Shown here piece by piece: positions 3,203 through 64,000 of a stretch of DNA of 64,000 bases. The stretch lies in IMG/VR virus record IMGVR_UViG_3300045988_057942; one strand, given 5' to 3'. The stretch is from a virus. The notes beneath the pieces are model-generated. The model saw only the letters and a list, made by a program, of their open reading frames with translations. It ran no database searches and was not told the DNA's origin. Position numbers and translations under genes: made by a program. Each line of letters starts with the position of its first letter. Within the stretch, counting starts at the first letter, position 1.

Positions 3203-4588
3203 CTAGCAAACAATATCATCAAAATTTTGAGCACTAATATCAGAATTAACATTCTGTATAACTTCATGGTTAACTGATACCTTTTCCTTTTTTAAACTTG
3301 CTTCCTCAATAGTACCAGCTATATAAAGTTTATGTACTTTAAGTTTTGATTGACTACAATTAACATTATTATAACGATAAATAAGTTCATCTATGGTATC
3401 ACATAAAGGTGAGGTTAAAATCCACTCATCTACGCTTGTTTCTAGGCTGTCAGTTGAATTATTTTTTATAGATAATACTCTTAATAAGCCATCATTAAAA
3501 GACTTCAAATTCAGCGTGGAAATAGCCTTAGATTTGATTATACGAGCAGTCCCTTTCTTGCTTCCAGACTTGTACAAAACAGGAATACCATTACTATCAA
3601 CTAGAACTTTATCCTCAATTTTATCATGATAATCACCACAAATTTCACCTAATTTATCATTAATATATTTAGTTACAGTAGCAGCATATTCACCTCTCTT
3701 ACTAATAATAAGAAATCGTTTATCAGGATTATCTTTAATAATTTCAACTATTCTTTCTAGCTTACAAACATTATCAGAACATATAAGCATACGTTCACGA
3801 ACAATATTATAAAAAGTCTTAACTCGTTCAGCAAGAACAAGAGGATTATAACATTTATCTATTTGTTCACTAAAAGGATTAGTCATATCCATATTATTAC
3901 TCCATCCATTATACTCAGCTATTTCTGTAATATATTGCATAGCACTACGTCCATCTGGAGTACCACTTCGAGCATATTTAATATTATCAAGATTACCAAA
4001 TACTTGAATAGTTTGAGTAATATATTCAGTATATTTATCGTAATTATCAATATCTTCTTGATTAATAAATAGAATAGGCTCTCTATGTTCCTCTACGGGG
4101 AGTAAAGCTCGAACTCCATTAATATTACTAGAATTTATACTATCATTAATAGGAGGAATATTAAGATAAATTGTACTTAATTTGGCAGAATCAATAGTAT
4201 CTTTAGTTATAATCATAAGTTTAAATCTAGCATGATTAAACGCAGTATTAACATAAAGATTCCATTCATTAACTCCAACAACAATAGAAACATCATAATT
4301 ATAATTATATTTACTATTAATATAAGTATAAGTAAGAATATTAATAGTATCTATATTTATATTATTATTTTTAAGAGCATCAACAATTTCAGTTCTTTCC
4401 TTCCAAACACCTACAACAATAAGTATTTTAATATTAGGATTCTTATTACGCATAAGAACTATAATTCTACTTATAATTTCAGTATATTGAAGAGGTTGAA
4501 CACAATGTATAGTTCCAACACCTTTATATTGTTTAGAACCCCATTTATTAATAAGTTTATTATAAGATTTTTCTAATACATTTTTCAT
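3203..4588 (-). CDS. Hypothetical replication-module protein (461 aa). No Walker A motif was found. It contains an in-frame copy of the GC motif (LLPVEEHREP).
   Basis: Long ORF. Its stop overlaps the start of the polymerase gene (ATGA-type overlap at 4585-4588). Confidence 0.7.
   Translation of the reverse strand: MKNVLEKSYNKLINKWGSKQYKGVGTIHCVQPLQYTEIISRIIVLMRNKNPNIKILIVVGVWKERTEIVDALKNNNINIDTINILTYTYINSKYNYNYDVSIVVGVNEWNLYVNTAFNHARFKLMIITKDTIDSAKLSTIYLNIPPINDSINSSNINGVRALLPVEEHREPILFINQEDIDNYDKYTEYITQTIQVFGNLDNIKYARSGTPDGRSAMQYITEIAEYNGWSNNMDMTNPFSEQIDKCYNPLVLAERVKTFYNIVRERMLICSDNVCKLERIVEIIKDNPDKRFLIISKRGEYAATVTKYINDKLGEICGDYHDKIEDKVLVDSNGIPVLYKSGSKKGTARIIKSKAISTLNLKSFNDGLLRVLSIKNNSTDSLETSVDEWILTSPLCDTIDELIYRYNNVNCSQSKLKVHKLYIAGTIEEASLKKEKVSVNHEVIQNVNSDISAQNFDDIVC
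4089..4103 (+). repeat. GC-motif copy (TCCTCTACGGGGAGT), inside gene 3203-4588.
   Basis: Read directly. Confidence 0.7.
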
Positions 4589-6915
4589 TCAAAATCATCT
4601 TCATTAAAAATAGGATTATACATACCACTATATTTTTTAATTTTACTTTTACCTTTTCCTTTAGGAGAAATTTTAAGTTTAATAGGATTAATAATCTTCA
4701 TAACTTCTTGATAATAAAATTTAAAATTAATATCACGTAAAGAAATATCTTTATCATCAAGTGTATTAATAACTGTAACTACAGAACCAGCAGCCATTCT
4801 ATTACGAGAACCATTATCGTTATGAACTTTTTCAATTATATATCCATTATTAGAAACATAAAATCGAATATATCTTTGACAAACAATTCTAATAACTTGT
4901 CCATTTTCAATTTTAGTTTCTTCAACATGAAATTGCTTACCAACATTTTGAGTTAAACAAAAATCAAGAATATTAGTAGCTTCTTGAAGAGTATCCATTA
5001 CAGGTTTGTTCTTTAGAAAATAGTTTTCAATAGCTTGAGCAACAATAGGCATAGAATAACCTTTAGTTAAATCTAAAGAATACATCATAGGATTAAGAGC
5101 ACCTTTAGATTCAAGTTTAAGTTTATGTACACCATTTTTAATAACTCTAAACTGACTAAGATAATTATTTACATCTCTGCTAATTAGACAATTATAATAA
5201 TCTGTATCAAACTTAAGTTTAGTAATATTTTCCCAAGTATCTTTAATACGATTATAAATGTCAATATCTCGTTTATAAAGTTTAATAACAATACCATCAG
5301 TATTAGCACTTAATACATGAATATTATTTATTTCTAACTCTTCTACTAACATTAACATCATTAACTGTCCATTAATAGTAGTTTTAAGTACAGCAAGTCT
5401 ATCATAAAGATTACCAGCTTCAAACCCAAGTTTGCCATAAACAGAATTAATAACAATCTTAAGAACCAAAGCTAAAGTATCTCTATCAATTCCATCTACA
5501 ATATCTTCATTACTATGCTTAACTTCAACTCGCTTATTTTTAAGCCATTCAATAAGATTACAGAAAGCATTAGTATCAAGATGAGCTGGAGCTACTTTAT
5601 GAGCAGCAATAATACTAGGATACATACTATTAATATCAGCATGAATATAAACATAATCGTTATCATTAACAAGGATATCGTGTTGACCCCCCGTAGAGGA
5701 TAGATATAGTTCTCTACCACTACTCCATAATTCAACAGGATTATCTTGACTATGTAAACCTCCAGTAGCAACAGTATAAGTTACATTTCCAATTTTAACT
5801 TCTTTACTAAACGCATCTTTATTAACTCTATAAATAGTAGTTTTAAGACATTCATCAAGAAAATCTTGCATAGGTTTAGTTTTAAATTTAATAAAAGGAA
5901 AAATAACTTTTTTAAAACTCATAGCAGTTCTTTCAGTTTTCTTACCTTTCCATTGTTCAGGAGCAAGACCACTAAATTTACTATAAAACTTCTCAAAAAG
6001 AATATCAGCAGTTTTACTACGACTAGAATTAAGAACGTCTACATCATAAGCTCTACTAATAGCATATCTGGATTTAATTTCTTCAGGATAAAGACGAACA
6101 ATTTCACAAACTATAAAAACATCATTAAGATTATAATGCATCATAGGTTCAATATATTCATCAAGAATAAATCTATCCCATTTATCAACAAACTTATTAA
6201 GTTGTTGAACAGTCATTCCTTTAAGATTAGGAATACTATTATATAATTCAGCTTCTTCTTCATTAATATCAGGAAGTTCATATTCTAGAAGTTCATACCA
6301 TTGAAGATTAATAGAAGTTTGTTTTAAACCTTTAGGAACAGGTTTACGTTCACCTGTTTTACTATCTACAACCACACTTGCTTTATTAAGAGCAAATATA
6401 CGCATTACATCAATACCTGTAAATGGTAGTTTATATTTTCTAAGACTATTAAGATAAAAATCAGTTTTAAATTTATCTTTATCATCTTGACTAGAAATAA
6501 TAGTTTTACTAGTTTCATATAACTTATTAATAAGTTCTTTCGTACTATTCGTACGCATATAAAAACTAAGTAAAGCAGCAATCATAAGATTATCATAATT
6601 GAAATTATTAAATCCATACAAGTCAGTACGAATAATATTTCCATTAGAATCCTTATAACATCTAGTCTTATTAATATAACCTATCATAGAAAGTAATTGA
6701 CTATCATCTTTATCTGTTATATGAAAACTATGTTTTTCAACAGTTTCAAGACGAGCTTTAATTTCTTCAACAGATAGTTTTTGAACTAAAGGAATAGCTT
6801 TTCCATCAGCATTAACACAATCTTTAAAAACTTTAAGATAACTATTAATACTAACAAAAGTAATAGAAAAGAAATTTCTTAAAACTTCAACATCATAAGC
6901 TATACAATTAATCAT
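4585..6915 (-). CDS. Family B DNA polymerase, small with an N-terminal exonuclease-like region. PolB motif A is DINSMYPS, motif B is KIVINSVYGK (KxxxNSxYG), and a motif C-like segment is LSANTDG.
   Basis: Motifs read in the translated ORF: YIHADINSMYPSIIAAHK, LVLKIVINSVYGKLGF, HVLSANTDGIVIK. The N-terminus has YDVEV (Exo I-like). Confidence 0.8.
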   Translation of the reverse strand: MINCIAYDVEVLRNFFSITFVSINSYLKVFKDCVNADGKAIPLVQKLSVEEIKARLETVEKHSFHITDKDDSQLLSMIGYINKTRCYKDSNGNIIRTDLYGFNNFNYDNLMIAALLSFYMRTNSTKELINKLYETSKTIISSQDDKDKFKTDFYLNSLRKYKLPFTGIDVMRIFALNKASVVVDSKTGERKPVPKGLKQTSINLQWYELLEYELPDINEEEAELYNSIPNLKGMTVQQLNKFVDKWDRFILDEYIEPMMHYNLNDVFIVCEIVRLYPEEIKSRYAISRAYDVDVLNSSRSKTADILFEKFYSKFSGLAPEQWKGKKTERTAMSFKKVIFPFIKFKTKPMQDFLDECLKTTIYRVNKDAFSKEVKIGNVTYTVATGGLHSQDNPVELWSSGRELYLSSTGGQHDILVNDNDYVYIHADINSMYPSIIAAHKVAPAHLDTNAFCNLIEWLKNKRVEVKHSNEDIVDGIDRDTLALVLKIVINSVYGKLGFEAGNLYDRLAVLKTTINGQLMMLMLVEELEINNIHVLSANTDGIVIKLYKRDIDIYNRIKDTWENITKLKFDTDYYNCLISRDVNNYLSQFRVIKNGVHKLKLESKGALNPMMYSLDLTKGYSMPIVAQAIENYFLKNKPVMDTLQEATNILDFCLTQNVGKQFHVEETKIENGQVIRIVCQRYIRFYVSNNGYIIEKVHNDNGSRNRMAAGSVVTVINTLDDKDISLRDINFKFYYQEVMKIINPIKLKISPKGKGKSKIKKYSGMYNPIFNEDDFE
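5685..5703 (-). repeat. GC-motif copy (revcomp: CTATCCTCTACGGGGGGTC), in-frame in the DNA polymerase (LSSTGGQ).
   Basis: Read directly. Confidence 0.7.
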
Positions 6916-9378: not shown

Positions 9379-9384
9379 AACATA

Positions 9385-9717: not shown

Positions 9718-9804
9718 AAGTACTTTACATTTTTAAAGATTAATAAAACAATTATATTTAATAGTTAAAACTATAATAAGTTCAATAATAGTTATATTAG
9801 TAGA

Positions 9805-9846
9805 GCCACTACGCTACGCTCCGTGGCGACCCCCCGTAGAGGATGG
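9805..9846 (-). repeat. Composite GC element. Hairpin GCCAC-13nt-GTGGC plus motif copy GACCCCCCGTAGAGGATGG. Intergenic.
   Basis: Read directly. Confidence 0.7.
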
Positions 9847-10679: not shown

Positions 10680-10722
10680 AATAAAACTGTATTAAATTTT
10701 TAGTTTAACATTTATTAGCTAG

Positions 10723-10805: not shown

Positions 10806-10837
10806 TTATATCCATGAACATGTCAGACTATGAATAA

Positions 10838-12133: not shown

Positions 12134-12469
12134 TTAATCGTAATAACCAAAAATATCATTTTCAGGATCAACAGCAGGAGTATCATCAACTGTTGGTTCC
12201 CAAGCAATGTCATCATAATCTTGACTTAGACATTCTGCATGAATTTCAACACCTTCAACATTATTATTGAAACTTGTATCATCTTCAACAAAATAAATAT
12301 CAGTTCTTTCCATAATAATATATTTAAAATAAACTCCGAGTAGAGGATGATTATCATCAATGTATTTAACTCTAAACAAACAAATATAAAACCCTGTAAC
12401 AAAATGGATAAAAATGAATAGCAAATGAAGACTAGCTTTAACTAATTCAACAACACTATCATCCTTCAC
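12134..12469 (-). CDS. Hypothetical protein (111 aa). A GTG start overlaps a GC-motif copy.
   Basis: ORF. The start region contains CATCCTTCACGGGGAGT. Confidence 0.5.
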   Translation of the reverse strand: MKDDSVVELVKASLHLLFIFIHFVTGFYICLFRVKYIDDNHPLLGVYFKYIIMERTDIYFVEDDTSFNNNVEGVEIHAECLSQDYDDIAWEPTVDDTPAVDPENDIFGYYD

Positions 12470-12476
12470 GGGGAGT
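12460..12476 (+). repeat. GC-motif variant CATCCTTCACGGGGAGT.
   Basis: Read directly. Confidence 0.6.
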
Positions 12477-16923: not shown

Positions 16924-17169
16924 AACAATAATATTATTAAGTTTAACATAAAAATATATTACTCTAGGAAATTAGCGAAATGTATTCCATAGATGGAACA
17001 ACTTTCGTGCACAAAGGTAGTCATTTTTGCCACTTAATTTGCATACTGATGGAGAATTAGGTATTCAGCATGATACATAATATGTATTATAACTTATTGA
17101 TAATCAATGTATTATAATTACTATAAAGATATATTATATATAGATATATTATATAGATTCGCTGTGACC

Positions 17170-17213
17170 CGCTCCGGACTTTCGTCCTCCGCTATACTCC
17201 CCTTAGAGGATGG
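17170..17213 (-). repeat. Composite GC element. 23-mer GCGGAGGACGAAAGTCCGGAGCG (GAAA-tetraloop hairpin) plus degenerate motif (CTAAGGGG). Shares the 23-mer with 55901-55927.
   Basis: 23-nt identity with 55904-55926 (revcomp), read directly. Confidence 0.7.
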
Positions 17214-17315: not shown

Positions 17316-17338
17316 CATCCTCCACGGGGAGTATGACT
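17316..17338 (+). repeat. GC-motif copy CCATCCTCCACGGGGAGTATGAC. Forms an inverted pair with 17170-17213.
   Basis: Read directly. Confidence 0.7.
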
Positions 17339-19375: not shown

Positions 19376-19393
19376 ACTGATGCTAATCTACTC

Positions 19394-19440
19394 CATCCTC
19401 TACGGGGAGTATAGCGTAGGCACGTAGTGCCGAAGCGTAC
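19394..19440 (+). repeat. Composite GC element. Motif plus GGCAC-gta-GTGCC hairpin. Intergenic.
   Basis: Read directly. Confidence 0.7.
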
Positions 19441-20479
19441 CCAAGCTAGTGTTGAACTTAATAATGTTAATATGGAACTTAGAGATAAAAGATATAATGA
19501 TATTAGACTTATTTTTCATGAAGAAGAACATAAGTATAACGATAGTCTTGGTAATGATTATATTTCAACCACTACTATTCTTCATGGATATCAACCGAAG
19601 TTCAATAAGAACTATTGGTTGAGAAAAAAGTCTAAAGAACTAGGAATAAGTGAGAAGAAACTAGAGGAACAATGGTCAACTATTACTAAAGAAGCTTGTG
19701 AACGTGGAACTAATACTCATAATGGTCTTGAAGATGGCGTTAAAGGGGCATCTATGTTTCAACAAGCTATTAATTATCTTGATAAACGTGAAGATGGTGT
19801 AATGGTTACTATTGCTGATATTCCAAATTTTGGTGCTAGTTATAAGTTACTTAATCTTAAAGATTTTATTGAACTTACAGATAATCGTTATCCTCTTATT
19901 TATAATGCGTTTAAAATGTACACTGAAAGAGGATATAAGATTTATAGTGAGATTGGTATGTTTCTTATAGATTGGTTAATTAGTGGAACTATTGATATTC
20001 TTCTAGTTAATGAAGATACTAATTGTGCTATTGTGGGTGATTGGAAAACTAATCGTGGTGGATTAAAATTTAGTAGTGGTTATTATAAAAAAGATAAAAC
20101 AGTTAAACCTGCACAACAAACTAATGTTTGGGTTGATAAAGATGAACGACTTTTAGCTCCTCTTAATCATCTTCCTAATTGTAATGGTGCTATATATAAT
20201 CTTCAACTTAGTATGTATGCTTTTGCTGTTGAATATATACTTGGTTTAACCATTAAAGGTATTTGGTTATGTCATATTGATAGTGATTTTGAACTTAATG
20301 AATATGGTATGCCAAAAAGATTTTCTGATGGTCTTTATCATATTAAAGAAAATCCTGTTGAAACTACTAAGTTTTTTACTATGAATTATCTGCGTGATGA
20401 TATTAGTAAGATTCTTAAAGATAGAGAATTACAAATTAAAGCTAGTGGTGTTCAAACTCAATTTAAACTTGCTATATGA
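19427..20479 (+). CDS. Putative PD-(D/E)xK-family nuclease (350 aa). Motif GTIDILLVNEDTNCAIVGDWKTN matches D...E.K. The likely start is the ATG near 19472; the track uses a GTG at 19427 inside a GC-element.
   Basis: D-x(n)-E-x-K-like arrangement read in the translation. No other recognisable motifs. Confidence 0.4.
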   Translation: MPKRTQASVELNNVNMELRDKRYNDIRLIFHEEEHKYNDSLGNDYISTTTILHGYQPKFNKNYWLRKKSKELGISEKKLEEQWSTITKEACERGTNTHNGLEDGVKGASMFQQAINYLDKREDGVMVTIADIPNFGASYKLLNLKDFIELTDNRYPLIYNAFKMYTERGYKIYSEIGMFLIDWLISGTIDILLVNEDTNCAIVGDWKTNRGGLKFSSGYYKKDKTVKPAQQTNVWVDKDERLLAPLNHLPNCNGAIYNLQLSMYAFAVEYILGLTIKGIWLCHIDSDFELNEYGMPKRFSDGLYHIKENPVETTKFFTMNYLRDDISKILKDRELQIKASGVQTQFKLAI

Positions 20480-21757: not shown

Positions 21758-22097
21758 GATTGATAATGTAGTGCATCCTCCACGGGGAGTCAACACTACT
21801 GATACAACTGTTCTTGTCCCTATTAATATGATTAAGATTGCTAATACTAAAATTATTAAAGCTAAACTTTATAAAGATATTATTAACGAACAAGATAGTA
21901 TGATTAATCTCCATAAGATTAAATATAATGCTCTTTATAAAGAAGTTGAAACTTTACAAAATAATCTTGATAATAGTAATAAAGTAAATGATAATTTAAA
22001 TAAGTCTATTGAACGTATTAAACGTAAGAATAGATATTTGGTAAGCGGTGGTGCTGTTTGCGCTATCGCTTTTGTTGTTTGTTTACTAGTTAAATAA
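21675..22097 (+). CDS. Spanin-like/coiled-coil membrane protein (140 aa) with an N-terminal signal/TM, a central coiled coil and a C-terminal TM. Overlaps the previous ORF out of frame.
   Basis: Hydrophobic N- and C-termini, a heptad-like central region, and Rz/Rz1-like overlapping gene architecture. Confidence 0.4.
   Translation: MKKILKIKLLVLMTVLLGSYSRSWCQSEIDNVVHPPRGVNTTDTTVLVPINMIKIANTKIIKAKLYKDIINEQDSMINLHKIKYNALYKEVETLQNNLDNSNKVNDNLNKSIERIKRKNRYLVSGGAVCAIAFVVCLLVK
21774..21797 (+). repeat. GC-motif copy CATCCTCCACGGGGAGTCAACACT (HPPRGV in ORF 21675-22097).
   Basis: Read directly. Confidence 0.7.
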
Positions 22098-27132: not shown

Positions 27133-28449
27133 ATGCCTAGTTTTGATAGTTTTGGTTTTAACGGTGAAACATCTAATGTTGATGTAAAACCTACTGACGA
27201 CGTTACTGACCTTGATACAGGTAAAACAGGACAGTTAGATGCTAATGGTAATGCTGTTGATGATATTACCGGAAATGGTAATGGAGATGACAATAATGGT
27301 GATGCTAATAAAGATAAACAAACTTCATCCTCTACGGGGGGTCAAACCAAGGATACTAAAAATCCTGATGATGTTAATGCTAATGAGCATGATTTAGAAG
27401 AAGGTACTATTATTGAAGATGGAGATAATAAATATACTGTTGATAAAGACGGTAATCTTATTGACGATAAAGGTAATATCTTTAAAGCTAAAAATGAAGT
27501 TGCTGCTTATCTTAAAGAATTTGAAGTAGAAGATACTAGTAATGAAGATAAAATTGATGTTAAATCAATTCAAGAACTTGTAGGTGTTTCTGTTACTTCA
27601 GAAGATGGCAAACCAGTTACTTTTGATAATACTCCTCAAGGAGTTGCAAGTTATGTTCAATCCGTTCTTGATTTAAAACGTGATGAATTTGCTAAAGCTG
27701 GAGTTAATAAATTATTTGAAGATTATCCTGTTGTTAGTGATTTTCTTAATTATTATATTGCAAATGGTAATTCATTTGAAGGCTTTGGTGAACTTAGAGA
27801 TAGAAGCGGTATTGAAGTCGATGAAAATAATGTGAGCCAACAAGAAGCTATTGTTCGTGAAGCGTTTAAGGAATTTAATCGTCGTGGTAATGTTGATAAG
27901 TATATTCAATATTTGAAAGATAGTAATGAACTTTTCAATGTTGCTAAAGAAGAACTTGAAGCTCTTCAGAAAGCTGATAACGATGTACGTGAAGCTAATG
28001 CTAAAGAGGCTTTACGAGTTAAAGCAGAAGAAGAAAAACAACTTGTAGAATTTTGGAATGGTGTTAAAGAATGTATTGATAAACGACAAATTGCCGGTTA
28101 TCGTATTCCTGAAACTGTTATTATTGAACGTAATGGAAAACAAATTTCTACAACTCCAGAAGATTTCTTTAATTATGTTTATCAAGTTGATGATAAAGGA
28201 CTTTCTCGTTATGAAAATGATTTAATGAAGTTATCTCCTGCTGAAAGACGCGATGAAGAACTGCTTAAAGCTTGGCTTAAATATACAGGTAAAGGTTATG
28301 ATAGTTTGATAGAAATGGCTGTTTCTGATAAAGAAGCTAAAAAGTTGAAACTTACTGCAAGTCAACGTAAATCTACAAGAGGAGCTATTAAAATAACTAA
28401 ACCTGATAGTAAAAATGACGTTCTAAAAGATGAACGTTTTGGTTATTAA
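27133..28449 (+). CDS. Hypothetical structural protein (438 aa) with an acidic Gly/Asp-rich N-terminus. Scaffold-like. Contains an in-frame GC-motif (SSSTGGQ).
   Basis: ORF. A TATATTTG -7-like box lies 35 nt upstream. Confidence 0.6.
   Translation: MPSFDSFGFNGETSNVDVKPTDDVTDLDTGKTGQLDANGNAVDDITGNGNGDDNNGDANKDKQTSSSTGGQTKDTKNPDDVNANEHDLEEGTIIEDGDNKYTVDKDGNLIDDKGNIFKAKNEVAAYLKEFEVEDTSNEDKIDVKSIQELVGVSVTSEDGKPVTFDNTPQGVASYVQSVLDLKRDEFAKAGVNKLFEDYPVVSDFLNYYIANGNSFEGFGELRDRSGIEVDENNVSQQEAIVREAFKEFNRRGNVDKYIQYLKDSNELFNVAKEELEALQKADNDVREANAKEALRVKAEEEKQLVEFWNGVKECIDKRQIAGYRIPETVIIERNGKQISTTPEDFFNYVYQVDDKGLSRYENDLMKLSPAERRDEELLKAWLKYTGKGYDSLIEMAVSDKEAKKLKLTASQRKSTRGAIKITKPDSKNDVLKDERFGY
27327..27349 (+). 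repeat. GC-motif copy (SSSTGGQ in 27133-28449).
   Basis: Read directly. Confidence 0.7.
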
Positions 28450-29966: not shown

Positions 29967-31124
29967 ATGGATTTTAATAAAGTAGGCGAAGCTAATAAAG
30001 CAGGAGAAAATGCTCCTGCTGCTTCTAATGAAAATACAGTTAAACAGGTTATACCCCCCGTAGAGGATGGAGATGATAATAGACCTAACAATACAGTAGG
30101 ATTTAGAGATGAAAGTCTTGATGAACCTTATACTGAAAAACGAACTATTACTATTAATTTAGTTACTAATTATTCATTATATCGTAGAGCTAATGATAAA
30201 ACATTACCTAAACGAATGGATAAAATTGGTAGTTGTGTTCGTAGTTCTCGTACTCTTTCTTCTAATAAAGGCGAGATTGAATCTTATTTTCCTGCTTTGA
30301 TTGGTCTTGCTCCTAATAACGAAAACTTTATTTCAAGGGTTAAGGCTTATCTTAATAACATTAGTGTTGCTGTTGATGAATTAGGTAAGACTTTTGATAT
30401 TTCTTTCTTTTGGAATCGTAAACGAGATTATCTTCGTTTTAGAGCTGAAGAAGAAGCTATTGAAACTGCCTATTTAAATAGTGACCGTAAAGGAGTTAAA
30501 GAACTTCGAGAAGCTCTTGAGTCTAAGATTACTAAACTTAATCTTCTTGAAAGTGAAAAATATAAATATGGTTATCCTGTTGTTCTTGATGATTATCTAA
30601 TTTATCGCCATTGTTTATTGTATAAAGATGTAGCTAAAGATATTGCTCTTATTAATTCTGACCCATCTATTAGATTCTATTTTAAAGATGACCAAAGAGA
30701 AGCTGAGCGTCTTGCTAAACATCGTCAGGAAATTAATGCTGCTAAGAGTAACTACGTTAAACTTCTCACGAATAGTGATTTGTTTGATGCTGTATTTATT
30801 CAATACTGTGTTGCTAACAATATTAATATTCCTAACGGTATGGCTATGGATACTGTTGATAAACAATCACATCTTGATAAATTTAGTACAAATGAACCTG
30901 CTAAGTTTAATAAACTTTGCAATGATAAAGATATTACTATTAAATCTTTAATTGAGGTTCTTATTTCTCGTGGAGAATTTATCAGAGCAATTCATAATCA
31001 GAATATTACTACTCCTGATGGTGAATTTATCGGTGCTAATGTTAAGGAAGCTGTTGTATGGTTTAAGAATCCTGCTAATAGTGCTCTTGTTAGTGCTTAT
31101 AAAAACAAACTTAAAAACATTTGA
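29967..31124 (+). CDS. Hypothetical structural protein (385 aa). In-frame GC-motif (PPVEDGDD).
   Basis: ORF. Confidence 0.65.
   Translation: MDFNKVGEANKAGENAPAASNENTVKQVIPPVEDGDDNRPNNTVGFRDESLDEPYTEKRTITINLVTNYSLYRRANDKTLPKRMDKIGSCVRSSRTLSSNKGEIESYFPALIGLAPNNENFISRVKAYLNNISVAVDELGKTFDISFFWNRKRDYLRFRAEEEAIETAYLNSDRKGVKELREALESKITKLNLLESEKYKYGYPVVLDDYLIYRHCLLYKDVAKDIALINSDPSIRFYFKDDQREAERLAKHRQEINAAKSNYVKLLTNSDLFDAVFIQYCVANNINIPNGMAMDTVDKQSHLDKFSTNEPAKFNKLCNDKDITIKSLIEVLISRGEFIRAIHNQNITTPDGEFIGANVKEAVVWFKNPANSALVSAYKNKLKNI
30051..30072 (-). repeat. GC-motif copy, reverse orientation (PPVEDG in 29967-31124).
   Basis: Read directly. Confidence 0.7.
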
Positions 31125-34138: not shown

Positions 34139-34163
34139 CCATCCTCTACGGGGAGTCTACACT
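34139..34163 (+). repeat. GC-motif copy CCATCCTCTACGGGGAGTCTACACT. Intergenic, upstream of 34190.
   Basis: Read directly. Confidence 0.7.
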
Positions 34164-39757: not shown

Positions 39758-42700
39758 ATGGCTATATATCAAGGAGATATTGGAATACATGATATTAAAC
39801 TTGGTAGTATAGATGTATTTGAAATATATCAAGGTTCTAAACTTGTTTATCCTGAGAATACTGAAGTTACTGTTACGTTTAAATTGAATGTTTCCGGAAC
39901 TGTTACTATTAATGGTTATACTCCTGTTATAAGTGAAAATAATACTAAATTTGTATTTACTATTCCTGTTAAGACTGATTATACTGCTAATATTACTGCT
40001 GAACATTATAAATCTCAAACTATTAGTGGTAACAGTGGTTATTTACCTATAACTCATAATGTAGAATTAGAATGGGAACAAGAATTTATATCTTATACTG
40101 TTACTTTTCCTACTGATGGAGTTAAAGTTTTATTTGATGGAATAGAAAAAGGAGTTATAACTAATGGTAAGTTAGTTGTATTAATTGATGATATAGAAGC
40201 TAAAGATAGTTATACTGTTACATTTGAAGGTAGTAAAGCTAGTACATATGATACTAGTGGATTAAAAGTAGTAGATAGTAGTATAGCTGCAACTGGTGGT
40301 AGTTATGATTTAAAACTTTCTACTAGTTCTGTTAAGACTGCTTATACACGAACTGACTATGCATCCTCCACGGGGAGTATAACCAAGGGTTCTACTTATA
40401 CTGGTTCTTGGATTGAAACTGTTGTTAATCTTACTGCTAGTTTTACTAGTTCTACTACTTTAGGTTCTATAAGTAATAATGTACTAACTATTGCTAATAA
40501 TGAATCTACTAATACTAAAAGTGGAACTTTAACTGTTATATTTACTTTAGAAAATAAACAAACTAAAGAAGTTAGTGCTGCTTTAAATCAAGCTGCTGGA
40601 GCTAAAGTTTATACTAATTGGGTATTAGATTTACAAACTGATGGAACTAGTGTTGAAGCTAAAGGTGGTACTAGAACAGTTACAGCTAATATTGCTCGTA
40701 GAACTTATAAATGGAATAATACTGGTACTGTTTATAGTGAAACTGCTACTCCTACTCTTAGTATTAGTGGTAGTGCTAGTCTTAGTGGAAATCAAATAAA
40801 ATTTACATCAAACGAGAGCGTTTCAGCCCGTTCTGCGGTACTTACTGCTAGTTATGTAGGATTATCCAAAACGATTACGATAACTCAATCAGCAGGCTCA
40901 AAAGTGTATTCAGCGTGGTCTGCATGGGCTGTTTCTATCTCGGCAAGTACGCAAACGATAGGCGCAAGTGGAGGAACATCAACAATAACTACTAGTGCTA
41001 GTCGTTCTAGAACTTGGACTTGGAATGGAGTTGGAACTACTCATACTGATACTGAAACAGGTACACCTACACTTAGTGGTAGTGCTGGTGGATTTACTTT
41101 AAGTGGTAAAACTGTTACTGCTAGTAACAATACTACAACAAATAGTCGTAGTATAACTATTACTGCTACTAGCAATAATGTTTCTAAGTCTATTACTATA
41201 ACACAATCTGCTGGTGCTAAAGTTTATGGTAATTGGTCTGCTTGGACTGTTAATATTAGTGCTGATAAAACTAGTATTGGAGCAACAGGTGGAACAGCTA
41301 CTATATCAACTAGTGCTAGTAGAACTAGAAGTTATACATGGAATGGTGTTGCCGGTTCTGGTGGTACAGAAACTGGAAATGGTACTCCAACGTTAAGTAA
41401 AGTTAGTGGAAGTGGTAATTGGACTAGTCCTAAAGTTACTTATGGAAATAATACTAGCACAAGTGGTAAATCAACTGTTATTCGTGCTACTATTGATTCA
41501 ACTACTAAAGATATAACTATTAGCCAATCTGCTGGAGCTAAACAATATAGTACTTGGTCTGCATGGACAGTTAATATTTCTAATAGTGGAAATATTGCTG
41601 CTAGTGGAGGTAGTTCAAATATAACTACTTCTGCAAGTAGAACAAGAACTTGGACGTGGAACGGAGTTAATGGAAGTGGTGGAACTGAAACAGGAACTGG
41701 AACTCCTACTCTTAGTAAAATTAGTGGTGCTGGTTCATTTGCTAGTAATAAAGTAACTTATGATAATAATACTTCTACAAGTGCTAGAAGTACAGTTATT
41801 AGAGCTACAATGGATTCTGTAACTAAAGATACTACTGTAACTCAAAATGCTGGTTCTAAAACTTATAGTAGTTGGGGAGCATGGTCTATTAGTTTAAGTG
41901 CTAATGTAACAACTATTGCTGCTGCTGGTGGAAATGCTACATTATCTACTTCTGCTACTAGAAGTCGTACTTGGCAATGGAATGGTACAGGAACAACTTA
42001 TACTGAAAATGCTAGTGGTTCTCCAACATTAAGTAAAGTTAATGGTGCTGCTTCTTTAAGTGGTTCTACTGTTAGTTATGGTAATAATACTTCTACTAGT
42101 TCTCGTAGTTCTGTATTTAGAGCAACAATAGATAGTACTACTAAAGATATAACTATTAGTCAATCTGCTGGGGCTAGAGTATATGGAAGTTGGTCTGGTT
42201 GGACTGTAAGTTGTAGTGCTAGTAATTATAAAGTTTGGGCAGGAGGTGATTCAGTAACTATTTATAGTAGTGCTTCAAGAAATAGAACTTGGACTTGGAA
42301 TGGTGTTGCAGGTTCTGGTGGCACTGAGTCTGATAATGCTACTCCTACTATTTCTGTTACAAGTGGTGTTGGAGTTTTAAGTGGTAATACTTTAACTTTT
42401 AGTAATAACACATCTCCTGATGCTAGAACAACTCGAGTTACTGCTAATTATAACGGAGTTACTGATTATTGTGATATTATGCAATATGGTGGTAATAAAG
42501 TTGCTGGAAGTTGGACATCTTGGCAAGTAACTATATCTGCTAGTCCTATGAATATTGCTGCTGCTGGCGGTAGTTCTACTATTACTTGTAATGCTGTTCG
42601 TACTAGAAATTATACTTGGAATGGGGTGGGTACTACTTATACTGAAACTGAAAATGGTAGTCCAACTTTAAGTAAATCTGGAGATGGTACATTAAGTGGT

Positions 42701-43727: not shown

Positions 43728-45413
43728 ATGAACAATAAACAACTATATGAAAAACTAGGTCAGAATAGTTATGATAAAGTATTTCCTATTACTTATCTTC
43801 AAAATATTCTTGACAAAGATACAAATAATGATTTAACTGTTGTTCTTTCTAGGTTTAATCATTTATGGATTCCATATCAAGGAACTAGAGTTAATACTCG
43901 TAAAGCTGTTCCTGCTATTTTTAGACGTAATAGTCTTACTATAAGTTATTATGACGCAGAACATAATATATCTGTAACTGAAAGTTATATAGGTAGTAAT
44001 ATGCAAGCTGGTGTTGAAGCTAGTTGGGTTTCTGATGATAATTGGACTAAAATTCTTAGTGAAAAATATCTTGAAGAATCTGGTGCTAAAATTCCTATTG
44101 CTGATGGTACTATTGATTGGGATATGCTTAACGAAGCTCTTAAGCAAATGATTGCTGCTGATGGTAAAGTTACTATTATTAATTATCCTGATGAAGAGGA
44201 TATTACTCTTCGATTAACTCCTGGTTGTTGTAATGTAAATCGTCTTAGTCTTAAAGATAGACATTATGAGCCTGAATATAAAAGCGGTAAAGGATATAAA
44301 ATAATTCGCAGGGTTTTACTCCCCGTGGAGGATGATGCTAGTAATGCAGAACAGCTTTTATTTGATGGTTTTCTTGATGATACTTATTGTGAACAATATG
44401 GCCAAATAATTCTTAATACTGATAAGTATGAAGTTATTAAAACAGATTTAGGTAATACTGCTGGTATTTATTATGATACTTATCATAAATTATTTGTTCT
44501 TAGAGTTAAGACTGTTCATGATGGAATTGGTTTTTATAATTATTATACTAGATGGACGATTGTAGAATCTACTGATAGAGTTCATCCTCTACGGGGGGTC
44601 AACACTCCTGTTTATGGAAATAGTGAAGATTATAATATTTATAATACTTGTCTTTCTGATGAACGTCCAAGACTTGGTATTATATATGTTAATTCAGTAG
44701 ATAATATTAAATATTATTTTAATGAAGAAAATCTAGTTCAAGTTAAGAATAATATTTATCTTAATTATAAAGCTGTTCTTACTCAAGATATGGTTAACGA
44801 AGAAAATACTCGTTATATTATTCGTTATGCTTTTGATTTAAGTGGTAAAACTATTACAATGCCTGCTGGATGTGAACTTGTATTTGAAGGTGGTATTATT
44901 GAAAATGGTACTATTGATTTAAATAAATGTAAACTTACAGGTATGGTTGGTGAAGAATCTGAATATCTTCCTAATGTAACTTGTAGTAATTGGGCTGTTG
45001 GTCAAATTGAATATCGTAATGGAAAGATTTGTTATTGGAATGGTAATGAATGGAGAGTAATGGGAGATACTTCTTCATTTGATAGTTATACTAAACAAGA
45101 AATTAATAACTTGCTTAAAAATTATTATACTAAATCTGAAACTTATAATAAAGAAGAAGTTAATAATTTGCTTAATGGATATGTTACTAATAGTACATTT
45201 AATAACTTTAAAGAAGAAATAAATCAAACTATTACTAATAGTGTTAATCTTGATAAGATTCAAAAAGCTATTAATGATGGTTGTGGAGTTAATATGACTA
45301 TGCCTAGTGCAAATAATAATAAACTTAGTCTTCCAATTTGGACAGGAACTGCTACCCAATATGCAACTATTACCCCAGTTGCTGGAATGACTTATAATAT
45401 TGTTGATGAATAA
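43728..45413 (+). CDS. Tail fibre-like protein (561 aa). Contains an inverted GC-motif pair flanking an ~88-aa internal segment.
   Basis: ORF. The N-terminal segment resembles the N-terminus of 34190-36808 (YILQYDY.../YIIRYAF...). Confidence 0.6.
   Translation: MNNKQLYEKLGQNSYDKVFPITYLQNILDKDTNNDLTVVLSRFNHLWIPYQGTRVNTRKAVPAIFRRNSLTISYYDAEHNISVTESYIGSNMQAGVEASWVSDDNWTKILSEKYLEESGAKIPIADGTIDWDMLNEALKQMIAADGKVTIINYPDEEDITLRLTPGCCNVNRLSLKDRHYEPEYKSGKGYKIIRRVLLPVEDDASNAEQLLFDGFLDDTYCEQYGQIILNTDKYEVIKTDLGNTAGIYYDTYHKLFVLRVKTVHDGIGFYNYYTRWTIVESTDRVHPLRGVNTPVYGNSEDYNIYNTCLSDERPRLGIIYVNSVDNIKYYFNEENLVQVKNNIYLNYKAVLTQDMVNEENTRYIIRYAFDLSGKTITMPAGCELVFEGGIIENGTIDLNKCKLTGMVGEESEYLPNVTCSNWAVGQIEYRNGKICYWNGNEWRVMGDTSSFDSYTKQEINNLLKNYYTKSETYNKEEVNNLLNGYVTNSTFNNFKEEINQTITNSVNLDKIQKAINDGCGVNMTMPSANNNKLSLPIWTGTATQYATITPVAGMTYNIVDE
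44318..44338 (-). repeat. GC-motif copy, reverse orientation (LLPVEDD). Left member of an inverted pair.
   Basis: Read directly. Confidence 0.7.
44583..44606 (+). repeat. GC-motif copy (HPLRGVNT). Right member of the inverted pair.
   Basis: Read directly. Confidence 0.7.
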
Positions 45414-49369: not shown

Positions 49370-49392
49370 CCATCCTCTACGGGGAGTATAGC
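49370..49392 (+). repeat. GC-motif copy. Intergenic, nested within an inverted repeat ATTAGCTAGG...CCTAGCTGATT (49332-49424).
   Basis: Read directly. Confidence 0.7.
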
Positions 49393-49527
49393 TTGCCGAA
49401 TTTGGCTAGTTTTAAGCCTAGCTGATTAGTTATACACGATTGAATAAAAGTCTTACTGTAAGCCTAAAAAGTGGCTCTATGGACGTACATAAATATTTAC
49501 AATATTAAAATTTAAAATAGTAAAGTT

Positions 49528-52177: not shown

Positions 52178-52327
52178 TATATAATTCCTAAAACTAATAA
52201 ATATAAGATTAATATAAATATTATTTTGGGAAGTATAACCTTACCTCTTGGTAAAAGATAACGTTATTTAGAAACTAAAAGTGTTGGTAGTGATATTTAC
52301 GAAGGCTCTTATATAAATTATATAAAT

Positions 52328-55589: not shown

Positions 55590-56486
55590 ATGGCAAATAA
55601 TAAAACGATTACGATAGAACATATAATTGGTAAACTTGATAATGATTTCAATCCTGATGGAAGTGATTGGATTCCTAGAGTTCCTGCTTGGTGTGTTGAT
55701 GCTATGAATGAACTTAAAGTTCTTCGTAAAGTTGATAAGAAAATGAAACTAACCGTCATTAATAAGATAGCTAAAAGTAAATGTTGTCTTATTGATGACG
55801 GTCTTAAAGTATATGATAGTAATGGTTGTGAAGTACCTAGAGCTGATACTAGTAAATATAGATGTGGTGATACTGAATCTGCTCCATCCTCTACGGGGGG
55901 TCAAGCGGAGGACGAAAGTCCGGAGCGTGCTACTAATAAAGACTATCTTGGCATGCCCGATGATTGTTGTCCTAATGGTTCTAGAACTAGAGAAGTTATT
56001 GATACTGGTAAAGTAGGATGTAATCCTGTTGTTTATACAGTTCATAATAATACTGAATGTCCAAGATGTCAGCATGAAGTTCATTCTCATTGTCAGACCC
56101 CCCGTGGAGGATATGATAAGTCAAATCATAATTATATTCTTATTGGAGGTAATACTATTGAACTTAATTTTAATGATACTTGTATAACAGTTGTTTATAA
56201 AGATATTGAAACTCAATATAGTGATAATTATCATTGTGAGATTCCTGTTATACCTGCTAATGGTAAATTAATTCAAGGTCTTACTTATTATTGTATGGCT
56301 CGTATGCTTATGAGAGGATATAAACATCCTGTGTTTAATCTTTCTGCTAGTCAATATGGAACTAATCCTTTCTATCTATGGGAAAGTATGAAGAAAGATA
56401 TTAAGACTAGTGTTTTGTTAGATGAACAAAGTGATGATGATAGTGGTTGGAATGAGTTCTTTTATAACTTTACTTTTCCTAAATAA
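55590..56486 (+). CDS. Hypothetical protein (~298 aa from MANNKTI; the track ORF starts upstream at 55470). Contains a convergent GC-motif pair flanking a Cys-rich, zinc-ribbon-like insert (CCPNGS...GCNPV...ECPRCQHEVHSHC).
   Basis: ORF. The Cys/His cluster is read in the translation. Confidence 0.6.
   Translation: MANNKTITIEHIIGKLDNDFNPDGSDWIPRVPAWCVDAMNELKVLRKVDKKMKLTVINKIAKSKCCLIDDGLKVYDSNGCEVPRADTSKYRCGDTESAPSSTGGQAEDESPERATNKDYLGMPDDCCPNGSRTREVIDTGKVGCNPVVYTVHNNTECPRCQHEVHSHCQTPRGGYDKSNHNYILIGGNTIELNFNDTCITVVYKDIETQYSDNYHCEIPVIPANGKLIQGLTYYCMARMLMRGYKHPVFNLSASQYGTNPFYLWESMKKDIKTSVLLDEQSDDDSGWNEFFYNFTFPK
55884..55927 (+). repeat. Composite GC element inside a gene: motif plus the 23-mer GCGGAGGACGAAAGTCCGGAGCG (SSTGGQAEDESPER).
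   Basis: Read directly. Confidence 0.7.
56095..56115 (-). repeat. GC-motif copy, reverse orientation (QTPRGGYD). Convergent partner of 55884.
   Basis: Read directly. Confidence 0.7.
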
Positions 56487-56488
56487 TT

Positions 56489-61791: not shown

Positions 61792-61870
61792 TCTTTTGCC
61801 CTCTGTTGGATTATTACATATAAGTATGAACTATTAATCGAATTATATGTTATCGTTCAACAGAGAGCCT
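61792..61870. repeat. Intergenic stem-loop element, copy B (CTCTGTTG...CAACAGAG arms). See copy A at 10723-10805.
   Basis: Shared sequence blocks with copy A, read directly. Confidence 0.6.
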
Positions 61871-61912
61871 TAAAATCAATAAAATATTAATTTCTCATTA
61901 TATTATATAACA

Positions 61913-64000
61913 ATGCCTAGAAAAAATAAAACTATTCATATAAGTGACATGCCTAGTGAATTTAAAGGTACAGTTACTAAAGATGGCAGATTTATTAAAA
62001 GTGGTATTCCTCCACTTGGTGGAGTTTATGATAAAGTAGCTAAAACTACCGGATTAATAAGACTTGGTAATGAATTTCTTTATAATGGTATTAATAATTT
62101 AATACCTAGAAATGATAGAGAACAATTAATGGATAATACTGCCGGTAGACTTGTTGATTATGTTAAGAATTTTAATAAAGAATCTTTTCCTAATGATGAA
62201 GACCTTGGACCAACTTTTCCATTTAATATTATTCAAACTCCTAGAACTAATGGAAGAAATATCCCACAAAAACAATATGCTACTGGTGGAAAAGTTCCTA
62301 ATGTAGTTGATGGTGGTATTGCTCATCCTCTTGGTAATAATTTCTTTTATATGAATGGAAGAAAACATAGTCAAGGTGGTATTGATATTGGTCCTAGTGA
62401 TAAAACTGGTATTGAAGTAGAAGATGGTGAAATTGTAGAAACTAATGGTGATGAACTTAAAGTTTATTCTGCTCAACCAATTATTAACGGAGTTAGTCCT
62501 GCTAAATTAGTTATGGGTGGAGCTAATCCTAATAAAGTATTTAAAGCTCAAGAAGATTTTAAAGATAGAAATAAAATTAATGATGATGGTACTATAAAAG
62601 CTATGGGTGGTTTAAGCAGAGATAAAGATTATGGTTCTAAAAAGAAACCTTATCCTAGTGTAGCTAAAAAAGATTTTGCTGGAGGACATAGAAGTTATCC
62701 TATTCCTACTAAAGCTGATGCTATTGATGCTTTAAGATTAGCTGGATTACATGGAAGAAGTGATGTTAAAGCTAAAGTCTATAATAAATATCCTGAACTT
62801 AGAAAGAAAGGTAGTAATGGATTGATTGTTAGTATTAGTGGTAATGTTAAGAATGGATTACTTCATTCTCCATCCTCTACGGGGGGTCGGCACGACAAAC
62901 TTAGGGATGGTGGAAAACGTATTAATCGTCATGGTAGAACTTGGGAATATGATGAAGATAACGGATATTATATTCCAATAACTGATAGAACTATTACTAG
63001 AACAAGTTCATATCCTATTGATAAATCTGCTAGAGGTGAAACTGTTTCTGGTTCTGAATATACATTTAGAAATGGAAGATGGCATAAAAATAAATCTAAT
63101 ACTTCTAATGATAATCCTACTAAAAATTCTGAAGTAGATAATGGAAATCGTCGTCCTCAATATTATGCAGAACGCGAACTTCCCTTATTTGATGATGGAC
63201 CTGCTATTACTAGCGGTCTTGTTAGAGCTGGTTGGAGTCATAGTAATAATAAAAATATAACTGTTGATAATACTAATATTCCAAATTTGCCTGCTACTAA
63301 ATCTAAAGGGAATACCCCCCGTAGAGGAAGGAATAAGTCAAGTCAATCAGTTCAATCTAGTTCTACTAAAACTCCTCCTACTGCTACTTATAATCGTAAT
63401 CTTCCTACTATAGAAGCTAGTATTCCTACTACTTTACCTGTTTCTACTAGTACTCCTGCTAAACAATCTAGTCAATCTGATGGTAAAGGTCAAGGTAAAT
63501 TTAAAAACATTACTACTGCTGATTGGATAGGTCTTGGTAGTAATATTGCTGGAGGATTAGGTAGTTATTTTGCAAGTAAACGAGCTATTAATAAAATGAG
63601 AGGTCCTGGCAGACCTACTCTTATTAGTGCTAATAAACTTAAAACTAAATATAATATTAATCCTCAACTTGATAGAATTAGAGAAGATAAATTTGAAGCT
63701 TATCGTGATATTGATTCTAATACTGCTAGTAGTCGTGTAGGTTTAGCTCGTAAACAAAGAGTTCGTAATGCTGCTGGTCAAGCTGTTAATCAACTTTATG
63801 GTGAAAAAGAAAATATTGAAACTAATCTTATTAATCAAGATAGACGTAATCAACAAAGTGTACGTCAATTTAATGCTCAACAATACAATCAATATATAGA
63901 TAGAAAAACAGCATTTGATAATGGTATTAGAGAAGCTAAACTTACTAATGTAAATAATTTATTTACTGGAATTAATGCTGGTATTCAAGATATGATTAGT
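61913..64000 (+). CDS. Large structural protein, 5'-partial in window (more than 695 aa; continues beyond the window). Basic/Gly-rich. Contains two in-frame GC-motif copies (PSSTGGRHD; NTPRRGRNK).
   Basis: Open frame from the ATG at ~61913 to the end of the window. Confidence 0.7.
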   Translation, partial: MPRKNKTIHISDMPSEFKGTVTKDGRFIKSGIPPLGGVYDKVAKTTGLIRLGNEFLYNGINNLIPRNDREQLMDNTAGRLVDYVKNFNKESFPNDEDLGPTFPFNIIQTPRTNGRNIPQKQYATGGKVPNVVDGGIAHPLGNNFFYMNGRKHSQGGIDIGPSDKTGIEVEDGEIVETNGDELKVYSAQPIINGVSPAKLVMGGANPNKVFKAQEDFKDRNKINDDGTIKAMGGLSRDKDYGSKKKPYPSVAKKDFAGGHRSYPIPTKADAIDALRLAGLHGRSDVKAKVYNKYPELRKKGSNGLIVSISGNVKNGLLHSPSSTGGRHDKLRDGGKRINRHGRTWEYDEDNGYYIPITDRTITRTSSYPIDKSARGETVSGSEYTFRNGRWHKNKSNTSNDNPTKNSEVDNGNRRPQYYAERELPLFDDGPAITSGLVRAGWSHSNNKNITVDNTNIPNLPATKSKGNTPRRGRNKSSQSVQSSSTKTPPTATYNRNLPTIEASIPTTLPVSTSTPAKQSSQSDGKGQGKFKNITTADWIGLGSNIAGGLGSYFASKRAINKMRGPGRPTLISANKLKTKYNINPQLDRIREDKFEAYRDIDSNTASSRVGLARKQRVRNAAGQAVNQLYGEKENIETNLINQDRRNQQSVRQFNAQQYNQYIDRKTAFDNGIREAKLTNVNNLFTGINAGIQDMIS
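62870..62896 (+). repeat. GC-motif copy (PSSTGGRHD).
   Basis: Read directly. Confidence 0.7.
63312..63332 (-). repeat. GC-motif copy, reverse orientation, variant (NTPRRGRN).
   Basis: Read directly. Confidence 0.65.

Follow-up and report, generated by a model that had tools for sequence, protein, structure and literature searches.

A GC-rich word repeated along crAssphage genomes: a candidate array of strand-specific recognition sites

Introduction

CrAssphage is the most abundant known human gut virus, and its replication and transcription are mostly uncharacterised. Here, we describe a GC-rich word that is repeated some 20 times in a 64,000-nucleotide stretch of viral DNA (IMG/VR record IMGVR_UViG_3300045988_057942; the whole stretch is referred to as the window) and that recurs, as lineage-specific dialects, in related gut phages. 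The terminase-portal region of the window is ~95% identical to that of the prototypical crAssphage, Carjivirus communis BK010471. Relative to this genome, the window is in the opposite orientation; it includes the replication arm, the divergent junction and the greater part of the structural arm.

Several described systems resemble this family in part. The stoperators of the Cluster A mycobacteriophages, the sites of the L5 gp71 repressor, comprise ~24-36 short asymmetric words distributed genome-wide, the variants of which co-evolve with their reader. However, stoperators are mostly intergenic and their orientation follows transcription, whereas ~60-75% of the copies of the crAssphage word are genic, 44% of these are antisense, and the array continues through a switch in gene orientation. 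Moreover, crAssphage is not known to have a repressor or a temperate lifestyle. The uptake signal sequence and DNA uptake sequence dialects of the Pasteurellaceae and Neisseriaceae are likewise over-represented in both orientations, include genic copies in harmless frames and originate by point mutation; in addition, their dialects occupy partly orthologous positions and form inverted intergenic pairs. Yet these words are bacterial, occur in hundreds to thousands of copies and serve DNA uptake, a process without phage counterpart, and a regular spacing per strand does not define them.

Chi sites and the FtsK-orienting polar sequences (KOPS) are strand-specific words for enzymes travelling on DNA and occur once per few kb, as the crAssphage word does. 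However, they are 5-8 nucleotides long, host-specified and skewed by replichore, whereas the crAssphage word comprises 17-18 nucleotides, is specific for the phage lineage and is interleaved on both strands. The promoters of the phage RNA polymerases of T7, T3 and SP6 share with it a length of 17-23 nucleotides, near-invariance, the existence of dialects and, for the T7 type, a G-rich 3′-part, and the GNA-triloop hairpins of the N4 promoters resemble the GCGAAGC and GCGGAGC mini-hairpins that accompany some copies. In contrast to the word, nearly half of whose coding copies are antisense, phage promoters all point with the genes and are mostly intergenic, and N4 has only three. Finally, Rickettsia palindromic elements (RPEs) and the GC clusters of yeast mitochondria are short GC-rich repeats in AT-rich genomes, some of which are translated in frame; unlike the word, which changes by substitution, keeps conserved positions and is regularly spaced, they are whole-element insertions with presence/absence polymorphism. 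Each of the nearest known systems (stoperators, uptake dialects, Chi/KOPS and phage promoters) departs from the word in at least one defining feature tested. Literature searches by the word of the Intestiviridae, by the word of phage crAss001 and by topic returned no description of such an array, and the paper on crAss001 persistence contains no phage promoter or motif data.

Results

The word occurs in large excess over chance

The genome has a GC content of 29%, ranging from 24 to 35% along the window. Exact matches to the core CCTCYACGGGGRGT occur 17 times in the window, as compared with 0.00 expected from 100 dinucleotide-preserving shuffles. When up to 2 mismatches were allowed, we obtained 20 copies versus 0.06 expected, with a maximum of 1 in any shuffle. 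These numbers bear out a previous sequence-only reading of the window, which had reported ~20 copies of a GC-rich motif over almost its entire length; the first copy is located at position 4090 and the last at 63314-63327. The same reading had counted 12 forward and 7 reverse copies; 12 are indeed found on the plus strand, but the minus strand carries 8. The flanking extensions that it had described are present as well, with (C)CAT on the 5′-side and TCAACAC, TATAGC or TCAAGCGG on the 3′-side.

All 20 copies were matched at orthologous positions in BK010471 (97 kb), which harbors 33 copies, some of them within the giant RNA polymerase genes. According to the BK010471 annotation, only 12 of the 20 window copies are genic and 8 are intergenic, which corrects the earlier statement that most copies lie inside genes; for BK010471 itself, ~23 of the 33 copies fall in annotated genes. 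Five of the six frames of the word are open, as had been proposed, when the degenerate position Y is T, but all six are open when Y is C. The frames in use encode SSTGG, (H)PLRGV or (I/F)LYGG in sense and PVE(E/D) or TPRGG in antisense orientation.

In agreement with the earlier assessment, the word is neither a CRISPR repeat, the copies being dispersed at kb distances and not arranged in a tandem spacer array, nor an intrinsic terminator, since it is not followed by a T run. Rfam searches at the gathering threshold and at E<=5 yielded no match overlapping any copy, and a tRNA/tmRNA scan found none. Away from the copies, a sub-threshold Rfam match to RT-17 RNA (52237-52325, plus strand; 29.8 bits versus a gathering threshold of 40.4, E=0.12) is located in the intergenic gap directly upstream of an open reading frame starting at 52328. 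A match with 2 mismatches in the BK010471 terminase gene (90423) was rejected as a member of the family, as it represents a protein-level coincidence common to other genera. This look-alike, CCTCCACG(T/A)CGAGT, recurs in cr3_1 (82555) and ctbg_1 (8048), reflects conservation of the protein and is a false positive for loose pattern searches.

Each lineage uses its own dialect

Within the Intestiviridae, the dialect of the word differs from genus to genus, and the genomes carry 20-33 copies each: cCATCCTCYACGGGGRGT in Carjivirus, wTCCTCTACGGGGGGTC in Delmidovirus (cr110_1, cr11_1), TTCCTYTACGGGGGAR in Diorhovirus (cr3_1), CYTTACGGGCCAG in Whopevirus (ctbg_1) and CTCCTYTAYGGGGGAA in Jahgtovirus (crAss002, cr107_1), which belongs to another subfamily. 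The information content is limited to ~17-18 positions. In Jahgtovirus, about every second copy has TG in place of the central CG (TACGGGGG versus TATGGGGG), and a conserved ACAG is found ~14-18 nucleotides upstream of many copies, so that the element may be longer in this genus. When IMG/VR was searched with the 16-mer common to Carjivirus and Delmidovirus, 114 of 120 loci were relatives of these two genera.

The first 100 kb of crAss001 (MH675552), a gut Bacteroides phage of the Steigviridae, lack the TACGGGG word. Instead, they contain 27 copies of the unrelated word CTTCTGGAG (yyCTTCTGGAGw), as compared with ~1.7-3 expected. These copies are located on both strands and mostly in genes, their orientation alternates (runs test, P=0.003), and their median same-strand gap is 6.2 kb. 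As crAss001 and crAss002 both infect Bacteroides (B. intestinalis and B. xylanisolvens, respectively) and yet carry unrelated words, the reader of the word is probably phage-encoded. No comparable word was found in the marine Steigviridae phage phi14:2 or in the non-crAss Bacteroides siphophages B40-8 and B124-14. The array is thus neither universal in the order, as indicated by phi14:2, nor a general property of Bacteroides phages.

We found no host repeat family: among the bacterial matches listed, all multi-copy "genomes" represent crAssphage contamination, 94-99% identical to BK010471 in most loci, and the remaining ones are single chance matches in GC-rich genomes. The contaminated or mis-binned assemblies include Chitinophaga silvisoli K20C18050901, Atlantibacter subterraneus FRCl and metagenome-assembled genomes labelled Mycoplasma, Clostridia and Clostridiales.

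Copies on one strand are evenly spaced along the DNA

The median gap between neighbouring copies on the same strand is 5.4-7.5 kb in all 8 genomes, and with one exception no two copies on a strand lie closer together than 1.2 kb. The coefficient of variation (CV) of these gaps amounts to 0.31-0.59 in 12 of 16 strand-by-genome combinations, as opposed to ~0.9 for random placement, and 13 of the 16 combinations deviate with P<0.05. In a second regularity test, the simulations kept same-strand copies at least 1.5 kb apart. Even under this exclusion, one strand per genome was clearly more regular than expected. The effect was strongest in BK010471 (CV 0.31 versus 0.67, P<0.001), whereas cr3_1 was regular on both strands; ctbg_1, crAss002, cr107_1 and cr11_1 gave P values of 0.003-0.03, cr110_1 of 0.06, and one strand of crAss001 was regular with P=0.02.

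In the Intestiviridae genomes, the regular strand is the sense strand of the structural-gene arm (hereafter late-sense), and the spacing of ~5.5 kb extends over the whole genome. The minus-strand array of BK010471 is sense in the structural arm and antisense in the replication arm, and its period is unbroken across the switch in gene orientation at 29.3 kb. Moreover, long genes contain several copies each. These results indicate that the spacing tracks DNA distance, not genes.

With respect to the genes, 56 coding copies in five genomes are sense and 44 antisense, and some of the antisense copies are conserved across genera. Unpaired intergenic copies are nearly all sense to the neighbouring genes and are located 22-260 nucleotides upstream of start codons. 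The orientation alternates beyond chance in 4 genomes, and 22 of the 23 pairs less than 500 bp apart are inverted. All pairs 30-154 bp apart are divergent ("-+", with the 3′-ends pointing outward) and mostly intergenic; the few wider "-+" pairs (268 and 344 bp) involve genic copies, and "+-" pairs, 160-460 bp apart, are mostly genic. One inverted pair marks the main divergent junction (17196/17319 in the window), and further inverted pairs, with AT-rich spacers between their copies, lie ahead of both RepL genes of BK010471. We therefore considered the possibility that the copies are RepL iterons; this was rejected, as cr3_1, ctbg_1 and crAss002 have arrays but no annotated RepL.

Selection acts on the nucleic acid and sites change by point mutation

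At several orthologous coding sites, the word is preserved while its reading frame differs between genera. The primase genes of Carjivirus and Diorhovirus encode (I/F)LYGG and those of Delmidovirus and Jahgtovirus PLRG(V/N) at this site, the DNA being ATC CTC TAC GGG GGG in one case versus AAT CCT CTA CGG GGG GTC in the other. Likewise, the DNA polymerase site is read as SSTGG or LYGG depending on the genus, and the gp50 site as TPRGG versus SPVED in the cr110_1 orthologue. Strains of the species depart from the reference in 0.5% of haplotype-sites for the 12 fixed positions of the core, as compared with 4.2% in the flanks (~9-fold) and 7% at the degenerate Y position. Even in relatives with a flank identity of only 75-85%, the core is intact. 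The constraint thus acts on the nucleic acid and not on the protein, the latter being excluded by the frame changes and by the intergenic location of 8 of the 20 copies. For the same reasons, the argument of the sequence-only reading that conservation at identical protein positions would indicate a protein-level constraint does not apply here.

At alignable coding sites, an orthologous copy is present in 7 of 14 cases in Delmidovirus, 5 of 11 in Diorhovirus, 3 of 10 in Whopevirus and 1 of 7 in Jahgtovirus. Given this sharing across genera, the sites are old and turn over slowly. Within genera, the few sites that one genome has and another lacks differ by 1-2 substitutions or a 1-nucleotide indel, as exemplified by CTTCTACGGGGGAAT in crAss002 versus CTTCTACTGGTGAAT in cr107_1, and in one relative of the window the copy at 44586 has been lost through substitutions alone.

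The sequence-only reading had likened the family to miniature mobile elements of the RPE or GC-cluster type; neither this view nor that of a miniature inverted-repeat transposable element (MITE) is supported. Target-site duplications were not detected, the longest flank repeat averaging 2.63 nucleotides at motif sites versus 3.05 at random sites, and all 20 sites were free of presence/absence polymorphism between the window and BK010471. The BK010471 annotation lists neither a transposase nor a RAYT-like gene, although no dedicated profile search for such genes was run. Unlike repetitive extragenic palindromes and bacterial interspersed mosaic elements, the family is not extragenic, given that 12 of the 20 window copies lie in genes. 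Some lineage-specific sites do match gaps of 4-5 residues in other genera (BK010471 30490), as an insertion would; others align without gaps (BK010471 36950 and 35041), e.g. KLPVED versus QLSYAE or QLTVAQ. Such a mixture of gapped and gap-free sites is predicted by mutational creation in tolerant loops. Hence, the sites arise and decay through point mutation and not through transposition.

A long form of the word carries a GC hairpin

Some copies are part of a long form, a paralogous unit of ~55-70 nucleotides with shared ends that is present in at least 8 copies in BK010471, 2 of which are genic; 4 or 5 of the copies fall within the window. It consists, in order, of the word, wtAGCG plus NAG, a short GC hairpin, CNNAGCGG and finally GTCCAAGCTAATC or TCTACTAAT. 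The stems of the hairpin vary from copy to copy (GGCAC/GTGCC, GAGTGC/GCACTC, GAGC/GCTC, GGAC/GTCC), and the loops are GTA, GAA or GAAA. In the long form next to RepL, the window has GGAC-GAAA-GTCC where BK010471 has GAGC-GAA-GCTC, a compensatory change of the stem. In Diorhovirus and Jahgtovirus, some copies are followed by GC hairpins of the GCGAAGC type.

The 3′-extensions at 9796-9828, 17156-17195, 19411-19450 and 55902-55937 contain GCGNA pentamers and mini-hairpins of the GCGAAGC or GCGTAGC type, and they often finish in AGCGG or GAAGCGG, which are the Chi words of the Bacillus subtilis and Staphylococcus aureus AddAB enzymes. Outside the window, at 28245-28290 of BK010471, a terminator-like hairpin (AACCTCGGTAG...CTACTGAGGTT) with a T run is found ~60 nucleotides downstream of the long form at 28173. 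These two elements could bound a transcript of ~100 nucleotides upstream of gp42/RepL.

The word itself could fold on the motif strand into a hairpin of 5-6 bp with a YACG loop and two G-U pairs. The folding energy is -6 to -8 kcal/mol for RNA, as compared with ~-3 for shuffles and for the complement, and -1 to -2 with DNA parameters, the asymmetry between the RNA strands arising from the G-U pairs. All pairs lie within invariant positions, the outer positions are unpaired and show no covariation, and the outermost pair changes from A-U to U-A between Carjivirus and Diorhovirus. In the Whopevirus dialect, a GG to CC exchange breaks the stem without compensation. Relative to dinucleotide-preserving shuffles, the z-scores are -2.1 to ~0 for RNA and ~0 for DNA. 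A hairpin of the word is possible, although its support is weak, and we rejected it as the functional unit in view of the low DNA energies, the RNA z-scores mostly near 0, the lack of outer covariation and the missing stem in Whopevirus.

Individual copies in the window

Going along the window, the first copy (4090-4103, plus strand) is a short form in antisense orientation in the SNF2 ATPase gene, a gp17 orthologue, where it is read LLPVEE; an antisense copy resides at residue 162 of the Carjivirus, Delmidovirus, Diorhovirus and Whopevirus orthologues. The short form at 5686-5699 (minus) is sense in the gene for the family B DNA polymerase (gp16) and read SSTGG. Its orthologues in cr110_1 and cr3_1 use the same frame, and that in ctbg_1 uses another frame, LYGG. 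A long form at 9796-9846 (minus) is sense in the gp11/gp12 intergenic region and comprises CCAT, the core at 9829-9842, a GCCAC..GTGGC hairpin and TCTACTAAT. At 12333-12346 (minus), ~20 nucleotides upstream of the gp07 orthologue, an intergenic degenerate copy with 2 mismatches, CCTCTACTCGGAGT, is retained in relatives with flanks only ~80% identical. It forms a "-+" pair over 130 bp with the intergenic copy at 12463-12476 (plus; 1 mismatch), which directly follows the gp06 orthologue.

At the major divergent intergenic region, a long form (17156-17213, minus; core 17196-17209, 1 mismatch) points to the RepL gene, a gp88 orthologue, and is composed of the core, ATAGCG, GAG, the GGAC-GAAA-GTCC hairpin, CGGAGCGG and GTCACAGCGAATC. 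The short form at 17319-17332 (plus) points to the gp87 orthologue and pairs with it as "-+" across a 109-nucleotide AT-rich spacer; equivalent pairs are found at the divergent junctions of cr110_1, cr11_1 and cr3_1. Between the start of the RepL gene and the long form, an AT-rich stretch (17090-17160) contains short direct repeats (ATATATAGATATATTATATAGAT) and might act as a promoter or in the manner of an origin.

The long form at 19393-19450 (plus) is sense in the gp84/gp83 intergenic region, with the core at 19397-19410 followed by ATAGCG, TAG, GGCAC-GTA-GTGCC and GAAGCG. Short forms in sense orientation are present in the orthologue of gp78, encoding a small protein upstream of the terminase (21777-21790, plus; read HPPRGV, with orthologous copies in cr110_1 and ctbg_1), and in a low-complexity region of the gp75 orthologue (27329-27342, plus; SSTGG). 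The short form at 30053-30066 (minus) is antisense in the gp73 orthologue, where it is read IPPVED at residue 29, and the cr3_1 orthologue has an antisense copy at residue 30. Between gp68 and gp67, a short sense copy (34143-34156, plus) is placed 16 nucleotides past the upstream stop codon and 33 nucleotides before the next ATG.

The gene for the BACON-domain protein (gp64) carries a short sense form read SSTGS (40365-40378, plus), and the tail protein gene gp63 a "-+" pair of short forms over 268 bp, consisting of an antisense copy read LLPVED (44318-44331, minus) and a sense copy read HPLRGV (44586-44599, plus). An intergenic copy between gp57 and gp56 (49370-49410, plus; core 49374-49387) is sense and is followed by the imperfect palindrome TAGCTTGCCGAATTTGGCTAG. 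Within gp50, encoding a P22 gp4-like tail protein, a genic long form in sense orientation (55884-55937, plus; core 55888-55901, then CAAGCG, GAG, GGAC-GAAA-GTCC, CGGAGCG and TGCTACTAAT) is translated as PSSTGGQAEDESPERA. It is paired as "+-" over 209 bp with a short antisense copy read TPRGG (56097-56110, minus). The gp47 orthologue contains a second "+-" pair of short forms over 440 bp: a sense copy read SSTGG (62874-62887, plus), which has an orthologous copy in cr3_1, and an antisense copy read TPRRG (63314-63327, minus).

Discussion

The reading that best fits the evidence is one that the sequence-only reading had offered as an alternative, namely recognition sites for a sequence-specific protein. 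With a probability of roughly one half, we consider the copies to be a genome-wide array of short, asymmetric and strand-specific recognition sites of ~17-18 nucleotides, selected at the level of the nucleic acid. The factor reading them would most probably be phage-encoded, since it co-evolves with the phage lineage. The copies are held at roughly fixed DNA distances whatever lies there, be it a protein loop in any workable frame or a spacer. As this spacing is governed by distance on the DNA, regardless of where genes begin or end and how they are oriented, we infer that the underlying process is a DNA transaction travelling along the genome. Our favoured guess is that the sites act as replication priming or loading signals. 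Replication forks running in the same direction as late transcription would then use the strand with the complete array as their lagging-strand template, and synthesis would start in both directions from the divergent inverted pairs, which are found at strand-switch junctions and ahead of the RepL genes. This guess is preferred because the complete array occupies the would-be lagging-strand template and because divergent pairs are found at junctions beside AT-rich DNA.

Several observations weigh against an array of DNA recognition sites. The array on the secondary strand is no more regular than exclusion alone explains. A DNA site that is read without any regard to orientation does not account for the sense bias among unpaired intergenic copies; this bias hints at a transcript-level effect or at an antisense cost in untranslated RNA, and the motif-strand RNA hairpin (5-6 bp, YACG loop, G-U pairs) can form in 4 of 5 genera. 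In addition, a 17-nucleotide recognition sequence has no known precedent among DnaG-type primases, which read trinucleotides. Lastly, the crAss-like phage phi14:2 has no array, so that the function is no core requirement of the order.

The sequence-only reading had considered an RNA-level or promoter role unlikely on account of the mixed orientation, an argument that is reasonable but not decisive. The word could be a structural RNA element, a small hairpin AUCCUC-YACG-GGGGGU with a tetraloop of the UNCG/YNMG type. It might, for instance, direct the processing, stability or antitermination of long late transcripts, which would also run antisense through the replication arm. The preferential folding of the motif strand, the A-U to U-A switch of the outermost pair, the sense orientation of unpaired intergenic copies, the course of the most regular array along with late transcription, and the second hairpin of the long form, which changes its stem sequence and stays paired, are all consistent with such a role. 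However, 44 of 100 coding copies are antisense, several of them conserved across genera, and the spacing disregards gene boundaries and crosses the orientation switch. Pairing is moreover confined to invariant positions without outer covariation, the Whopevirus stem is broken uncompensated, the shuffle z-scores reach only -2.1 to ~0 and no Rfam family matches. We consider an RNA element unlikely.

Start signals for a phage polymerase, i.e. sites resembling virion RNA polymerase promoters or primer-RNA sites that would fire in the 5′ to 3′ direction of the motif on both strands, with divergent pairs as bidirectional starts, appear improbable to us. A strongly conserved word of 17-18 nucleotides with dialects resembles the promoters of the single-enzyme phage polymerases (T7, T3, SP6), and it terminates in a G run like the initiation sites of the T7 type. 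The unpaired intergenic copies are suitably placed, in sense and 22-260 nucleotides upstream of start codons, and the short-range pairs are divergent, including the one at the main divergent junction. Furthermore, no promoter is known for the virion RNA polymerase of crAss phages, an enzyme with a preference for single-stranded DNA (bioRxiv 10.1101/2020.03.07.982082). Yet phi14:2, the phage of that study, lacks such a word, and its early transcripts share no common motif (bioRxiv 10.1101/2020.03.07.982082). Likewise, most copies (~60-75%) are genic, nearly half of these are directed against the gene, and a GC-rich sequence is unusual where melting is needed.

We regard as quite improbable that the copies are Chi-like or roadblock sites. 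In this case, a nuclease or helicase moving along the DNA would recognise the word, or a protein bound to the word would halt such an enzyme, and the sites would thereby guard the ends of concatemers or genomes or guide recombination. In favour of this view, the word is strand-specific and recurs by distance, once per ~3-6 kb, one orientation forms a complete genome-long array, as expected for an enzyme entering from one end, and long forms are often accompanied by AGCGG or GAAGCGG, the AddAB Chi words of B. subtilis and S. aureus. However, known Chi words are 5-8 nucleotides long and specified by the host, whereas crAss001 and crAss002 use unrelated words on congeneric hosts and related phages use dialects; in addition, no host repeat family was found among the bacterial matches listed, and the non-crAss Bacteroides phages B40-8 and B124-14 lack such a word.

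A miniature mobile element inserting in frame is very improbable and largely refuted: its GC richness in a 29% GC genome, its occurrence in both orientations, the gap-matching sites and the long form with shared ends speak for it, but duplications and polymorphism are absent, differences within genera are point changes, other lineage-specific sites align gap-free, no transposase or RAYT-like gene is annotated (no dedicated profile search having been run), sites keep their places from genus to genus even as the word itself is altered in concert, and the copies are regularly spaced and not scattered.

Returning to recognition sites for a phage-encoded factor, we tentatively suggest, as a possibility that we hold to be somewhat doubtful, a hitherto undescribed form of genome punctuation in gut crAss-like phages. 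One lineage-specific word per ~5.5 kb on the late-sense strand, together with a looser set on the other strand, would constitute a regular strand-specific array that is written through genes at the expense of the protein and read by a phage-encoded factor. This factor would organise a DNA process over the full length of the genome, for instance priming of the lagging strand, loading of a polymerase or protection of the ends. If this is true, the unrelated words of different families (the TACGGGG type in the Intestiviridae, CTTCTGGAG in crAss001) would imply that the system is conserved and not the sequence.

A strongly selected 17-nucleotide word that is placed at regular distances on a defined strand and overrides protein coding provides a testable handle on its reader protein and on the process served across the genome, and its sites lend themselves to experiments in two relatives available in culture, crAss002 and crAss001. 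The dialects can be used as simple sequence markers of lineages. Moreover, as seen here, non-coding signals can shape the coding sequences of phages, which bears on the annotation of the genes concerned and on estimates of their evolutionary rates.

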